Origin: Pirellulales bacterium
GTDB lineage: Bacteria > Planctomycetota > Planctomycetia > Pirellulales > PALSA-1355
Length of the DNA: 64,000 nt
Direction of reading: 5' to 3'
NCBI GenBank assembly: GCA_963733035.1
Contig: CAVTBU010000005.1
Span: forward strand, 2,080,001-2,144,000
Below are positions 30,639-34,830 of the stretch, piece by piece. The position numbers were made by a program, and so were the translations under genes. How positions within the stretch are numbered: the stretch's first letter is position 1; each line of letters begins with the position of its first letter. The notes beneath the pieces are model-generated. The model was not told the origin of the DNA and did no database searches. It saw nothing but the letters and a program-made list of their open reading frames with translations.

Positions 30639-31655
30639 TCAATCGTCGTACAGCATCACCATTGTCCGTCCATCGGATGTAACGTAGCCTCGGAACAAGC
30701 CGGGCGTATTGAACGGGGCCGTGAATTGACCATCCGCGCCGAGGGCGATCACACCCCCTTCGCCGCCGGCCGGTTTGAGCTTCTTTTGGATCACTTCGGC
30801 GGCCGCCGCTTCGATCGACATTCCCCTGTATTTCATCAGCGCGGCGATGTCGTGGCAGGCGGCGTAGCGAATGAAGTATTCGCCCTCGCCGGTCCCGGAC
30901 ACCGCACACACGCCATTCTCGGCATAGGTGCCGGCACCGACGATCGGTGAGTCGCCGATGCGGCCGTACATCTTGTTGTTGCGGCCACCGGTCGAGGTGG
31001 CGGCCGCCAAATTGCCTGCCGTGTCGCGGGCAACGGCTCCGACAGTTCCCCAGGGTTCTTTCTCCGTCAGCTCGGTACTCGCTTGCCGCTTGGCCTCCTC
31101 GGCTTCACGCTGCCAAACTTTTTGAATTTGCCGCCAGCGTCGTTCGGTCCAGAAGTAGGCCGGATCGACGGTTTCCAAGCCCACCTTGGCGGCGAACACT
31201 TCGGCGCCCCGTCCGGCAAGAATCACGTGCTTCGTCTTCTCCATCACGGCGCGGGCCGCGGTGACCGGATTCTTGATGACCGTGACACTGGCAACGGCTC
31301 CTGCCTGCAGGTTGCGGCCGTCCATGATCGAGGCGTCCATCTCGTTCTGGCCTTCGTGCGTGAACACCGCGCCTTTGCCAGCATTAAAGTGGGGCGAGTC
31401 TTCCAATACCCGCACCGCCGCCTCGACGGCGTCGAGTGCCGTGCCGCCAGATCGCTTGAGCACCGCTTGGCCGGTTTCCAGAGCCCGTTGCATGTCGGCT
31501 CGCACCAACTTTTCGAGCTCTGGCGAGAGCTCCGCCCGGGCGCCAGCCGCGCCGCCATGTATCGCCAGCACAACATTCGGCACGGGCGAGTCGGCCGAAA
31601 CGACCGAAGCCACGACGGCCACCATGAGAAGCGAGAATAACAGACTTTGCAGCAT
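30639..31655 (-). CDS. iaaA: isoaspartyl peptidase/L-asparaginase (Ntn hydrolase), with signal peptide
   Basis: LAIHGGA, FNAGKG, GTVGAVA, ATSTGG, GRIGDSP, VSGTGEGE. Confidence 0.93.
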   Translation of the reverse strand: MLQSLLFSLLMVAVVASVVSADSPVPNVVLAIHGGAAGARAELSPELEKLVRADMQRALETGQAVLKRSGGTALDAVEAAVRVLEDSPHFNAGKGAVFTHEGQNEMDASIMDGRNLQAGAVASVTVIKNPVTAARAVMEKTKHVILAGRGAEVFAAKVGLETVDPAYFWTERRWRQIQKVWQREAEEAKRQASTELTEKEPWGTVGAVARDTAGNLAAATSTGGRNNKMYGRIGDSPIVGAGTYAENGVCAVSGTGEGEYFIRYAACHDIAALMKYRGMSIEAAAAEVIQKKLKPAGGEGGVIALGADGQFTAPFNTPGLFRGYVTSDGRTMVMLYDD

Positions 31656-31835
31656 GAGCACGGCCCTCAAAACTTGAAGAAGCCAACGGGGCGGAACGGC
31701 AAAATGCCGCGATTCAGGATATGCGGGGACAACGTCGCGATCAAACTGGAGTTCGCCCCGTTTACAGCGCGCGCTAAGTTTCCGATGATGCAGATCGTAC
31801 TTGCCTCTCCAGCACCTGTGTCACCCGGCATTTCC

Positions 31836-33096
31836 ATGTCTGATTCTGTCGAATCCTCCCCCGTGGCCGAACCATGCGAGGCTGCGCCGCGTGAAACCGC
31901 TGTCGGCTTTGCCACCTCGCAGGTCACTCTCAAGCCGCGCAAGGCACGACCGTTTTATGGCCGGCACCCGTGGGTGCTCGATTCGGCGGTGGCGCGTGTC
32001 GCAGGCGACGCTGCTGACGGCGATGTTGTCGATCTGATCAGCGATGCTGGCAAATTCGTGGCCCGCGGGATTTTCAACAGCCGCAGCCGAATTCGCGTGC
32101 GACTCTACACTTGGGACATCAATCAGCCACTCGCCGAAGCGTTCTGGCGGAGCAAGCTGGAAACGGCTCTCGCACTGCGGCACTCGCTAGGACTCGATGC
32201 CCGCGACGGTGCCGCCCGACTTGTCTTTAGCGAGGCGGACGGGCTGAGCGGACTGGTCGTCGATCGCTACGCCGACTGGCTGGCCGTGCAAGTGACCGGT
32301 TTGGGGATCGCACGGCGGCTTGAGGAAATCGTGGGCCAACTGCGGGAACTCATCCAGCCGCGCGGTATTTTCATCCGCACCGAAAAGGGCGTCGCCAGCG
32401 CGGAGGGGATCGAACTGCGCGATGGCTTGTATTGGGGCGACGCGCCGCAAGGCCCGGTGTTCATCACCGAAAACGATTTGAGGTATGGCGTCGATCTGGC
32501 TGAAGGGCAGAAAACGGGCTTCTATGTTGATCAGCGCGATAACCGCCTGGCGGCGGCGCGCTACTTTCGCAATCGGCGCGTCCTCGACATGTTCTGCTAC
32601 AGCGGCGGTTTCAGTCTTAATGCTGCCCGGCATGGCCAGGCTCGGGAAGTGATCGGTTTCGATTCCAGCGCCAAGGCGGTCGCTCTGGCGCAAGCGAATG
32701 CCGAACTGAATCAGGTGACCAACACGCGTTTCGAAGCGTCCGATAGTTTCAAAGCACTGGATGCCTTGCGTGACAACGGCGAGAAGTTCGGAGCCGTGAT
32801 TCTCGACCCGCCCAAATTCGCGCAGTCGCGGCTCAGTTGTCGATGCTCTCCGGGCCTATCACCGCCTCAACCGGCAGGCAGTGGAACTGCTTGAACCAGG
32901 CGGTATCCTCGTCACCTGCAGTTGCTCAGGTCACGTCACTCGCGAGGATTTTTTCTTCATGCTATTGGGGGTTGCCGAGCAGACGGGTCGCGATATCCAA
33001 GTGCTCGAAACGCGCGGCGCTTCGGCCGACCACCCCACGAGCGTGACTTGCCTCGAAAGTGAATATCTGAAATGTTTTATCTGCCGTCTGACGTAA
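31836..33096 (+). CDS. rlmI: RlmI-family 23S rRNA m5C1962 methyltransferase (apparent frameshift near 32830)
   Basis: HPWV PUA domain, SEADGLSGLVVDRY, GQKTGFYVDQRDNR, LDPPKF; TCSCS and ESEYLK in a second frame. Confidence 0.9.
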
Positions 33097-33274
33097 AGCC
33101 CTGCTGAAAGTTCAAAACCTTGCGGCAATAGGTTGCAGGGTGCCCTCCGATTCGATTGAGAACCGCAAATCCACCGAGGCTGGCGCGAACCCTCAGGGCA
33201 GCCCGCGGTGTCGAGCTTGGGATCTCGGCGGGTGCCGCGGGACTAGGGTGGGGAGTTGGCAGTTGGGGCCGCTC

Positions 33275-33304
33275 TTGACCCCGCCTGCGCCGCCTGAATA
33301 CCAT
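33275..33304 (+). promoter_or_regulatory. putative sigma-70 promoter of an intergenic transcript
   Basis: TTGACC-N18-TACCAT. Confidence 0.6.
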
Positions 33305-33413
33305 GAAGCTGTGCCGAGCTAACGTGGTTCGGCGGGACCAACGGCCCGGAGACGCCGCCGGTCAGGGCTGGCGGGAACTTCGGGATGGCCTTGGTTGGAA
33401 AGGAGGTGACCCT

Positions 33414-33446
33414 ATGTCTAGTGGTATACAGAGGTGGCTCGTTTAA
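33414..33446 (+). CDS. putative 10-aa peptide MSSGIQRWLV
   Basis: AAAGGAGGTGA SD immediately upstream of ATG; TAA lies at the tip of a hairpin. Confidence 0.45.
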   Translation: MSSGIQRWLV

Positions 33447-33537
33447 CGAGCAGCCGACGGGCTGCCTGCCTGAGAATCGGAACCTCTCGATTCCAGGGCA
33501 CGTTAGACAGCCACGTTTCTGAGACCTGTTAAGAGTG

Positions 33538-33573
33538 GAGCCGGCCGGAGCCCTTCTTCGGCCGGCTCTTTTT
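33538..33573 (+). terminator. Rho-independent terminator
   Basis: GAGCCGGCCGGAG-CCCTT-CTTCGGCCGGCTC followed by TTTTT. Confidence 0.85.
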
Positions 33574-33798
33574 CTGCGCCCAGCCGCAGACTGTCCCCCG
33601 TCCAAAGGCCCAACACCGGCCACGACCGGAATCCTTGTGATAATTGCGCAATGCGTTATTCCCGGAACCCGCAGTCGCAGTCGCAAAAACGCGATGTAAA
33701 CTCGTTTGAAGAGTGTTGCGGAGGGGAAACCGCAAAGCTAGCATGAATGCTCAATTTGGGATGATAGCGTTCACTTTGACGCCTCGGGAGGGATAGGA

Positions 33799-34830
33799 AT
33801 GCGGGCTGGAAAATCGATTCTCGTATGGGCGGCGGCTCTCATGATGGTCGCCAATCCGGCTTCGGCCTGTCGCTGGCGGTGTCGCACCTATTGCGGCCCG
33901 GTCTATTGCGCGCCGGCGTACTGTGCGCCAAGGTATTGCGGCCCGGTCTATTATGAGCCGACATATTGTGGCAGCGTGCCGGCCGACTGTTCCGCCGGTG
34001 GTGAAAGGACCGGTGGACCGGTCACGACCAATCGCGTGCCGGACCACGCGCCGGCCGAATCACCGACCCCGCAACCGACGATTGAACCAACAACGCCCGC
34101 AGCTCCGACGCAGCCGGCACCAGAGCCGTTTGAAGCACCCGCGTTCGAACCAGCGCCAGCCCCCGAAAAACCGATGCCCGCGGCTCCTGCCGAAGAACGG
34201 CTTGGACTTCCAACCGAACCGGCGCCAGCTGAAAAGGCCCCCGCAGAAGCACCAGCGGCGAAGTCCGAGGTGGAGGACCTGTTTAGCGAGCCAGCAGCGG
34301 AGCCGGCGATGCCGGCCGAAACAAAGCCCGAAGCACCGCCGTCCGACGTTGAAGACCTATTCAAAGACCCGGCCCCCGCTCCGCCGGCCGACAAGCCGAA
34401 AGACGAGGTCGACGATTTGTTCAAGGATCTGGACGACAAGAATGCGGCATCGGGCGAAGCCCACATCCCGGCGCCGGCCACTCCGGAAAACAAGGAAATC
34501 GAAGACCTGTTCAGCGATCCGCAGCCCGAATCGCCAATGAGCGCGGCGGTTGAACCGGCCCCAACGCCGGTCAAAGAAGCACCGACGCCGGTTGCAAACG
34601 TGTCGGAAGTCAAAACCGAGCTTCCGCGCCAAGACGCCGCGACGCGGCTGTGGACCGACAATACAGGCAAGTATCGGGTCCGCGGGCGGCTGGTCGTTGT
34701 AGGACCGACGCACGTGCGAATTCTCAAGGAGAACGGCAAGTTCACGACCGTGCCGTACGGAAGGCTGTCCCAAGCCGACCTGGCCTTCGTGAAGCGGCAC
34801 GCCAACGCCGCCGTTGTCGCCAGCTTCTAA
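33799..34830 (+). CDS. secreted low-complexity protein with C-terminal SHD1 domain
   Basis: Signal peptide, YC[GA]P repeats, Pro/Ala/Glu linker, RLWTDNTGKYRVRGRLV...VPYGRLSQADLAFV. Confidence 0.85.
   Translation: MRAGKSILVWAAALMMVANPASACRWRCRTYCGPVYCAPAYCAPRYCGPVYYEPTYCGSVPADCSAGGERTGGPVTTNRVPDHAPAESPTPQPTIEPTTPAAPTQPAPEPFEAPAFEPAPAPEKPMPAAPAEERLGLPTEPAPAEKAPAEAPAAKSEVEDLFSEPAAEPAMPAETKPEAPPSDVEDLFKDPAPAPPADKPKDEVDDLFKDLDDKNAASGEAHIPAPATPENKEIEDLFSDPQPESPMSAAVEPAPTPVKEAPTPVANVSEVKTELPRQDAATRLWTDNTGKYRVRGRLVVVGPTHVRILKENGKFTTVPYGRLSQADLAFVKRHANAAVVASF

Follow-up and report, generated by a model that had tools for sequence, protein, structure and literature searches.

A conserved small RNA gene of planctomycetes that joins an extended Shine-Dalgarno sequence to a ten-codon open reading frame

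A free-standing small RNA gene at the locus

To our knowledge, very few small RNAs are known in Planctomycetota. Here we describe one in a 64,000-nucleotide (nt) stretch of DNA from a Pirellulales bacterium (assembly GCA_963733035.1, contig CAVTBU010000005.1), the whole of which is referred to as the window; all coordinates are those of the window. A preliminary description, made from the sequence alone, had proposed that a stand-alone structured transcript is encoded there. The flagged stretch (33275–33574, + strand) is a real, conserved and free-standing small RNA gene of about 265 nt. The promoter, hairpins, long stem, loop complementarity and terminator that had been listed are all present where they had been placed. 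The gene is composed of the following elements:

33275–33304, + strand: sigma-70-type promoter, with −35 box TTGACC (33275–33280), 18-nt spacer and −10 box TACCAT (33299–33304)
near 33311, + strand: predicted transcription start
33313–33333, + strand: hairpin H1, 7-bp stem GCCGAGC/GTTCGGC with loop TAACGTG
33336–33396, + strand: hairpin H2, long and three-segmented, taken from the minimum free energy structure
33336–33346 with 33387–33396, + strand: lower stem of H2
33347–33351 with 33378–33382, + strand: middle stem of H2
33355–33362 with 33367–33374, + strand: apical stem of H2
33398–33409, + strand: extended Shine-Dalgarno (SD) sequence GAAAGGAGGTGA, which matches the complement of the 16S 3' tail GGATCACCTCCTTTCT over 12 contiguous bases
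33414–33446, + strand: short open reading frame (mini-ORF), ATG TCT AGT GGT ATA CAG AGG TGG CTC GTT TAA, encoding MSSGIQRWLV followed by a stop
33431–33437, + strand: internal SD-like motif GAGGTGG, within the open reading frame (ORF) and 9 nt 5' of its stop codon
33434–33448, + strand: 5' strand of helix P5 (RNAalifold), spanning the last codons and the stop codon of the ORF
33450–33465, + strand: hairpin P4, GCAGCC-GACG-GGCTGC, nearly invariant, with core CCGRCGGG
33467–33500, + strand: variable hairpin, containing GAATCG/CGATTC, of lineage-dependent length and sequence
33501–33514, + strand: 3' strand of helix P5, CGTTAGACAGCCAC, which takes in most of CACGTTA
33537–33574, + strand: intrinsic terminator, in which a T run comes after a GC-rich stem of 14 bp

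Between 32800 and 34000, TTGACC-N18-TACCAT is the sole promoter-like site (shuffled sequences give 0.3) and the terminator is the sole terminator-like site (shuffles give 1.2). Both are conserved among 30 relatives. More specifically, the promoter pattern TTGNYN-N16-19-TANNAT is found 5' of GGAGG at a fixed distance in 30 of 30 relatives (82–108 nt overall, and 96–108 nt in 29 of them), and a GC-rich terminator-like pattern, CCGG...CCGG...TTT, is found in 29. The pairs of the terminator stem furthermore show covariation in an RNAalifold analysis of the 30 relatives. Together with a single copy per genome and variable neighbours, described below, promoter and terminator fit a free-standing small transcript, as judged from prediction and conservation.

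The + strand folds at −132.9 kcal/mol with a z-score of −5.2, a value equalled by none of 200 shuffles; for the opposite (−) strand the z-score is −2.7. As the preliminary description had anticipated, the transcript has no Rfam family: no Rfam 15 family reached threshold at the locus. A gathering-threshold scan of the whole window returned only five tRNAs (686–2757) and no 6S match, and a permissive E-value scan of 33100–33800 gave only sub-threshold matches at chance level.

These scans bear on the idea that the gene encodes a divergent 6S RNA, or another housekeeping RNA, that escapes the Rfam models. The 6S model RF00013 gave no match at E ≤ 1 in the 92%-complete genome, nor at the locus, so that a 6S RNA could in principle be sought here; according to the sections of a study of Thermogutta available to us, 6S was not found in that genus, and its absence from Pirellula and Rhodopirellula is cited there (PMC5673643). 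The fold argues otherwise. No rod with a central bubble is formed by a joining of the 5' and 3' ends; the RNA instead begins with two local hairpins, after which come a ribosome-binding site, its ORF and a three-way junction. The signal recognition particle (SRP) RNA, the transfer-messenger RNA (tmRNA) as well as 16S RNA are located elsewhere in the genome. We consider such an identity extremely improbable. As a side observation, the tmRNA gene (G000:C3:1-347) is situated right where a contig ends, and is truncated at model position 10.

An extended Shine-Dalgarno sequence and a conserved mini-ORF

The preliminary description missed the most telling features of the gene, the 12-nt complement to the 16S tail and the conserved 10-codon ORF. 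The 16S gene of this genome ends with GGATCACCTCCTTT, then CT. With the 16S gene's own antisense strand set aside, GAAAGGAGGTGA is the sole 12-nt complement to this tail in the 6.6-Mb genome and also the longest, and it reaches 14 nt if one wobble pair is allowed. Hairpin H2 ends 1–2 nt 5' of it. In the alignment of relatives GGAGGT is invariant and GAAAGGAGGTG nearly so, and the complement runs over 7–18 nt, mostly 11–12.

Conservation of the ORF was followed in 94 homologs with distinct cores, 90 of them confirmed by BLAST or by a covariance model (R1, see below) and four being Planctomycetota-labelled loci below the model threshold that were added by eye. The pattern used to collect homologs required GGAGGT, GAGGYGG and CCGRCGGG; start and stop codons were not part of it. 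A complement of at least 16 nt is present in three of the 94 (16 nt in L068 and L072, 18 nt in L122).

The preliminary description had considered a small-ORF mRNA as one possibility, and the homologs bear this out. In the window, ATG at 33414 lies 7 nt after GGAGG and opens a frame of 10 codons that ends at TAA (33444–33446). All 94 homologs have a start codon 6–11 nt after GGAGG (at +7 in 59), in the form of GTG (46), ATG (38) or TTG (10), and in all 94 it opens an ORF of 10–14 codons. The stop codon (TGA in 40, TAA in 36, TAG in 18) lies 6–11 nt 5' of the P4 loop in 94 of 94, and in every one of them it is inside helix P5. This layout of start, frame and stop was seen in only one of 33 unrelated loci that matched the same pattern. 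Insertions and deletions inside the ORF comprise whole codons (L017, L018), and the spacer between the SD sequence and the start codon varies by single bases. As a further observation, 66 of the 94 homologs have a C directly behind the stop codon; C in this position is a weak termination context in Escherichia coli.

This pattern of conservation can be set against a reading in which the RNA is purely non-coding, titrates the 16S 3' tail or some other factor, and carries the ORF by accident. Such a role would suit an SD sequence extended far beyond the needs of initiation and the strong structural covariation found in all helices (see below), as well as the finding, in the sections available of the report on the Bradyrhizobium small mRNA rreB, that the extension impedes translation (PMC5711450). 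An incidental ORF would leave unexplained why all 94 homologs, but only 1 of 33 unrelated loci, have a suitably spaced start codon and end the frame at a constant place in the structure, and why the frame survives interchange of ATG, GTG and TTG, interchange of TAA, TAG and TGA, and whole-codon indels. We therefore judge a purely non-coding RNA to be quite unlikely.

The same nucleotides are read in two frames

Within the ORF, AGG-GG of the internal GAGGTGG motif is invariant in the alignment of relatives, and the distance from GAGG to the stop codon is 9–10 nt in 89 of the 94 homologs. The conserved motif is nevertheless read in two different frames, in 43 and 51 homologs, respectively, and two peptide types result. 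The window's family and contigs labelled Isosphaeraceae or Gemmataceae encode peptides of the type ...NQRWLV followed by the stop, and Planctomycetaceae-labelled and other contigs encode peptides of the type ...SQRGGxx. Both types come from the same conserved nucleotides, CAG(C)GAGGUGGC, in different frames. Variation is free in the peptide's N-terminal half, and the Cys common to most others is missing from the copy in the window. Because the frame changes while the spacing to the stop stays fixed and the N-terminus varies, the constraint appears to act on the RNA and to demand that an ORF exists and is correctly placed, rather than to act on the amino acids. The peptide is thus probably not the product, and comparison of the homologs makes ribosome engagement the likely selected trait.

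A micropeptide gene, in which the 10–14-residue peptide is the product and the RNA structure tunes its synthesis, would account for the retention of the ORF in all homologs, for a peptide that is near-constant within the family (MCSGNQRWLV/A) and for the recurrence of Cys, then (S/N)QR, in both peptide classes. The RreB and RreR peptides are likewise conserved within their clades, as stated in the sections available of the rre report (PMC5711450). The C-terminal half, however, is set by nucleotides conserved in the RNA (GAGGUGGCU and the P5 strand), and depending on the clade these nucleotides give QRWLV in one frame and QRGGxx in the other. The N-terminal half varies (S/C, G/D/P/R, N/I/Y/F), with no Cys in the window's copy, and the peptides of matches from other classes (MSHDRRRPLA, MSSDCIGGLRF) share little. 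A micropeptide gene is accordingly an unlikely explanation.

A covarying 5' domain and 3' junction

RNAalifold, applied to 30 full-length relatives, recovers H1, the apex of H2, the long-range helix P5, hairpin P4 and the terminator. When relatives are folded singly, most of the structures also contain the two-hairpin 5' domain. The H1 loop AACGTG is invariant in the 30 nearest relatives, and each pair of the H1 stem is supported by compensatory changes in 1–16 sequences; in the model-fitted alignment, six of six H1 pairs are changed on both sides and 87% of the cells are paired. A second covariance model, R2, represents the 5' domain and was found directly 5' of the core in 57 of 100 loci. 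Across these 57 relatives, all 27 model pairs of H1 and H2 show compensatory changes, including all 21 pairs of H2. Overall, 74.6% of cells are paired compared with 58.2% in shuffled alignments, and the covariation score is 0.422 compared with 0.184, a value reached by none of 500 shuffles. The hairpin at 33313–33333 and the long interrupted stem proposed in the preliminary description are thus supported by covariation.

At the 3' side, 11 of 12 pairs in the two segments of helix P5 have compensatory changes. Position 2 of the stop codon (A/G) itself covaries with U/C on the opposite P5 strand. Hairpin P4, which had also been noted previously as GCAGCC/GGCTGC, is conserved; it starts 4 nt 3' of the stop codon, with 97.8% of cells paired and compensatory changes in three of six pairs. 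For P5 and P4 together (96 matches, 93 of them distinct), 92.2% of cells are paired compared with 84.0% in shuffles, 15 of 19 pairs show compensatory changes, and the covariation score is 0.305 compared with 0.179, which none of 500 shuffles reach; slid partners score at most 0.05. P5 and P4 form a covarying three-way junction. Two results speak for a real covariation signal, namely the low scores of the slid controls and the independent outcome of RNAalifold. The predicted unpaired probability is 0.48 for the SD sequence, 0.07 and 0.01 for the 5' and 3' strands of P5, and 0.28 on average, in agreement with an open docking site and a closed P5.

Two other hairpins of the preliminary description fared less well. 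GAATCG/CGATTC is present in the window, but it belongs to the variable hairpin, which many relatives do not have; the 100-nt forms on contigs labelled Isosphaeraceae or Gemmataceae are among those without it. In five of 30 relatives (L015–L017, L023, L029) the local hairpin GCTCG/CGAGC is disrupted and P5 is kept instead; the local hairpin could at most be an alternative state adopted when P5 is open.

It had further been suggested that the loop of H1 and the 3' end of the RNA pair around the ribosome-binding site and thereby form a switch. Two partners were considered for this long-range pseudoknot, CACGTTA (33499–33505) for loop TAACGTG and CCACGTT (33511–33517) for AACGTGG. Both are exact 7-nt complements in the window, and the second is complete (7/7) in its nearest relatives (L001–L004 and L006). 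Across the 30 relatives the switch finds no support: the first pairing is complete in only four and the second in only five, with 1–5 of 7 pairs in most. In distant homologs the loop reads ACGCAG or ACGCGG, and no matching change of the partner was found. Because the loop never varies among the relatives while its partners drift without compensation, the pairing shows no covariation, whereas H1, H2, P5 and P4 all covary. We reject the pseudoknot as highly unlikely, since it is neither conserved nor covarying and since CGTTA already lies in the covarying P5 strand.

Distribution and genomic setting

The window's own 6.6-Mb genome contains one copy of the gene by BLASTN, and BLASTN matches were obtained in 33 of 61 related genomes, the window's own counted. 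Covariance model R1, for which the core of 30 relatives was used, was applied to 151 genomes sampled from the order, and 75 of them have exactly one copy. Of 150 further genomes from the phylum, 21 gave a single, weaker full-length match each. In a pattern scan of named genome contigs, 43 of 80 loci among the matches listed pass R1. All 43, among the matches listed, have Planctomycetota-type titles (Pirellulales, Planctomycetaceae, Gemmataceae and Isosphaeraceae, including Tundrisphaera lichenicola and Tautonia sociabilis); most of the remaining 37 are chance hits in high-GC sequence of other phyla. Cultured carriers of the gene exist: matches are strong in the contigs titled Tundrisphaera lichenicola and Tautonia sociabilis and weak in one titled Adhaeretor mobilis.

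Of the 21 weak hits from other classes, 19 were retrieved. A script found the extended SD sequence followed by an ORF of 9–13 codons in 17 of them; the remaining two show the same layout by eye, the script having anchored on an upstream GGAGG. By eye, the 19 hits carry a GGAGG-, GAGG- or AGGGG-like run in the position of GAGGTGG. Several of the other-class hits carry GAAAGGAGGTGATCCAG-TG, the exact 17-nt hallmark of rreB. A literature search, with subscription-only papers outside its scope, found no prior description of this RNA in planctomycetes. We thus describe a new RNA family, supported by covariation and present once per genome across much of the phylum.

The upstream neighbour encodes an RlmI-like protein with PUA and SAM-methyltransferase domains (Pfam hits). 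The downstream neighbour (33799–34830, + strand) encodes a secreted Cys/Pro-rich protein with a signal-peptide-like sequence and a C-terminal SHD1 domain (Pfam PF03983, E = 2.7e-10). A comparison of relatives shows that these flanking genes are kept next to the RNA gene within the family only; beyond it both neighbours change, and the downstream gene is often convergent (L021, L024, L027, L028, L030).

This setting decides against a cis-acting leader or attenuator of the downstream gene, with the mini-ORF as a leader peptide. A small ORF, alternative hairpins and a terminator do form a leader-peptide-like layout, and the downstream gene is conserved alongside within the family. Outside the family, however, other genes flank the RNA gene on either side, and the one downstream is frequently encoded on the opposite strand, so that the RNA gene is not a leader. 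In addition, the terminator lies about 225 nt from the next start codon, and the consensus fold has no helix that competes with the terminator stem, as a trpL-type attenuator would need. We regard a leader function as very improbable.

Likeness to rre RNAs and other ribosome-engaging systems

The closest precedent for the layout is rreB of Bradyrhizobium, one of the rre (ribosome-regulated expression) small mRNAs; it is 165 nt long, is preceded by an RpoD-like promoter and ends in a terminator (Hahn et al. 2016, RNA Biol 14:1353, PMC5711450). In the sections of that report available to us, 17 nt of rreB are complementary to the 16S 3' end and extend into the GTG start codon of a 14-codon ORF; the RNA co-sediments with the 30S subunit, is weakly translated, becomes stabler after replacement of the start codon, and has a function that the authors term elusive (PMC5711450). 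That study reports rre analogues with 16–17 nt only in four alphaproteobacterial orders and nowhere mentions planctomycetes (PMC5711450).

The planctomycete RNA is like rreB and rreR in being free-standing, with a housekeeping-type promoter, a terminator and one copy per genome. In both groups the ribosome-binding site is complementary to nearly the whole free 16S tail and a tiny ORF lies directly behind it (14–18 codons in rreB/rreR, 10–14 in the planctomycete RNA), the remainder is structured, and the genomic context is kept only within the family. Some planctomycete relatives (L122, L222, L225) even share the rre arrangement of 17–18 nt, GAAAGGAGGUGAUCCAG-UG. Unlike the rre RNAs, the planctomycete RNA has its own conserved P5/P4 junction at the 3' side and an internal SD-like motif before the stop; it is about 100 nt longer than rreB and has a covarying two-hairpin 5' domain before the SD sequence. 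The rre hallmark is found in part of the planctomycete family, for instance in several other-class hits with the full 17–18 nt, and not in the window's copy. Because the 12 nt and ATG of the window's copy fall short of it, we consider the planctomycete RNA rre-like in kind and not a member by homology. The preliminary description had called the RNA novel. By analogy of layout with rreB/rreR, it is not a wholly novel kind of RNA, although it has no Rfam family. In layout, small mRNAs with extended SD sequences now reach beyond Alphaproteobacteria.

The consensus of the Rfam family CC2171 (RF01867) has GAAAGGAGGUGAUCC followed by GUG, and a terminator at its end. An alphaproteobacterial CC2171 match (63.9 bits, below the gathering score of 75) contains a 19-codon ORF from GUG when read by hand. 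CC2171 is a Caulobacter small RNA whose expression in Methylorubrum was confirmed by Northern blot, according to the part of the preprint available to us (bioRxiv 10.1101/2022.01.24.477521). We infer that CC2171 is probably the form in which the rre RNAs appear in Rfam.

Two further systems offer partial parallels. The mRNA-like domain of tmRNA has a frame of about 10 codons with its stop codon in or next to a helix, and acts through ribosome engagement. The planctomycete RNA resembles it as a structured small RNA with a frame of about 10 codons and a stop codon in or near a helix; unlike tmRNA, it has no tRNA-like domain, and entry would be by a canonical SD sequence and start codon. The recoding sites of prfB and dnaX have an internal SD-like element upstream of the decisive codon, and dnaX also has a hairpin downstream of it. 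Here, similarly, an internal SD-like motif is followed by a short spacer, the decisive codon (a stop), a second spacer and a stable hairpin. Unlike prfB and dnaX, there is no conserved slippery sequence and no extended frame afterwards, and the 9–10-nt spacing to the stop fits stabilisation rather than frameshifting.

A proposed mode of action

We propose that the gene encodes a structured small mRNA on which a ribosome docks and then carries out a brief round of translation, the RNA being remodelled thereby; we consider this the most likely mode, with a probability of roughly 60%. The extended SD sequence (12 nt here, up to 18 nt in relatives) would dock the 16S 3' tail and thereby set the start codon 7 nt downstream. 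A ribosome on the mini-ORF would have to melt P5 and would come to abut P4. The internal GAGGUGG could then re-pair with the 16S tail, at a spacing that becomes optimal when the A site is occupied by the stop codon. GAGGUGG is then 6–7 nt from the P-site codon, and 6–7 nt is the most favourable spacing for an SD:anti-SD duplex. The terminating ribosome would thus sit between a second SD:anti-SD duplex and the stable hairpin P4.

If so, the selected property would be ribosome docking and a short, structurally gated translation event, rather than the peptide. The same nucleotides are read in two frames while the placement of the ORF is kept, which points to this function. The two-frame reading, with preserved start, length range and stop-in-helix, is a mechanistic clue absent from the published rre work. 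By analogy with rreB, ribosome engagement may govern the conformation and turnover of the RNA itself, and the RNA may report on, or buffer, free 30S subunits or translation capacity.

Public sequence data give hints of expression. Parts of the stretch are held by 24 public runs from 20 studies, 18 of the runs being recorded as RNA. Four runs were examined, all of them stored as contigs, from which ends, strand and level cannot be read and in which a lack of coverage carries no information. Runs X1 and X2 contain a 181-nt contig identical to 33372–33552, their figures being identical so that they are possibly one data set; runs X3 and X7 contain 207–294-nt contigs of relatives that cover 33294–33522. 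Short matching contigs thus occur in metatranscriptome libraries of at least three studies, and none of the contigs from the four examined runs reaches the flanking genes. The contigs weakly hint at an abundant short transcript.

Several points weigh against the proposed mode. For planctomycetes, the transcript, its ends, ribosome binding and translation are predicted from sequence and conservation. The contigs are no proof of transcription, and because one X3 contig continues into the promoter region of its relative, read-through or carried-over DNA may be involved. The homologs are related, so that counts such as 94 of 94 exaggerate their independence, and the presence of GGAGGT, GAGGYGG and CCGRCGGG in the homologs is circular because the collecting pattern demanded them. 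Both covariation alignments were fitted to the models, so that the pair counts favour the model structures. The peptide is fairly conserved within clades (MCSGNQRWLV). The window's copy misses the rre hallmark of 16–17 nt running into GTG, having 12 nt, a mismatch and an ATG 4 nt further on. The Rfam scan and model R1 showed no homology to the alphaproteobacterial RNAs beyond the SD sequence and start codon: when R1 is applied to a CC2171-type alphaproteobacterial RNA, only the SD/start part aligns, at 14.7 bits. Conversely, the best Rfam match of the planctomycete RNA is RF01867 (CC2171), with 21.2 bits against a gathering score of 75 (E = 0.027); this model aligns only to the SD/start segment and the terminator, not to the middle, and the planctomycete RNA is not a member of the family.

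A bolder version of the proposed mode can be formulated, which we put forward as tentative and rather doubtful. The RNA would be a two-site ribosome clamp acting as a phylum-wide sensor or buffer of free ribosomes and would constitute, with the rre RNAs, an old and unrecognised class of housekeeping mini-mRNAs. The 16S tail would be held first by the extended SD sequence and passed to GAGGUGG after 10 codons. Beforehand, GAGGUGG would be masked in P5 by the CCAC-containing, anti-SD-like strand. As the three-way junction opens, the terminating ribosome would be parked between the GAGGUGG duplex and P4.

Other candidates and minor observations

In many homologs with the QRGG-type peptide (L075, L076, L078, L115, L141, L155 and L156 among them), a nested hairpin lies 23–47 nt after P4 and repeats the 16S 3' tail, GGATCACC(T), in its 5' arm and loop. 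Judging from its sequence, this copy could pair with the SD sequence of the same RNA. Runs of at least 8 nt of such a copy occur in 14 of the 94 homologs, all QRGG-type, compared with 1.9% of shuffles. As a feature of the window's own copy, GGATCACC[T] was rejected, the run there being only 5 nt and at chance level.

Two other identities were considered and set aside. A protein gene on the minus strand (33243–33686, 147 amino acids) has no Pfam family, and the minus strand is open for at least 100 amino acids across the element in only 17 of 30 relatives. The Rhodopirellula-1 motif (Weinberg et al. 2010) is a different, short hairpin flanked by AACA...ACGUU, with no SD sequence or ORF.

The RlmI-like gene upstream (31647–33096, + strand) is split over two frames, 31647–32894 and 32881–33096. 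The second piece holds the conserved C-terminus ...DHPTSVTCLESEYLKCFICR, and the gene is a single frame in relatives; the split reflects either a frameshift or an assembly error near 32830–32890. At 686–2757, the five tRNA genes found by the Rfam scan are clustered on the − strand.

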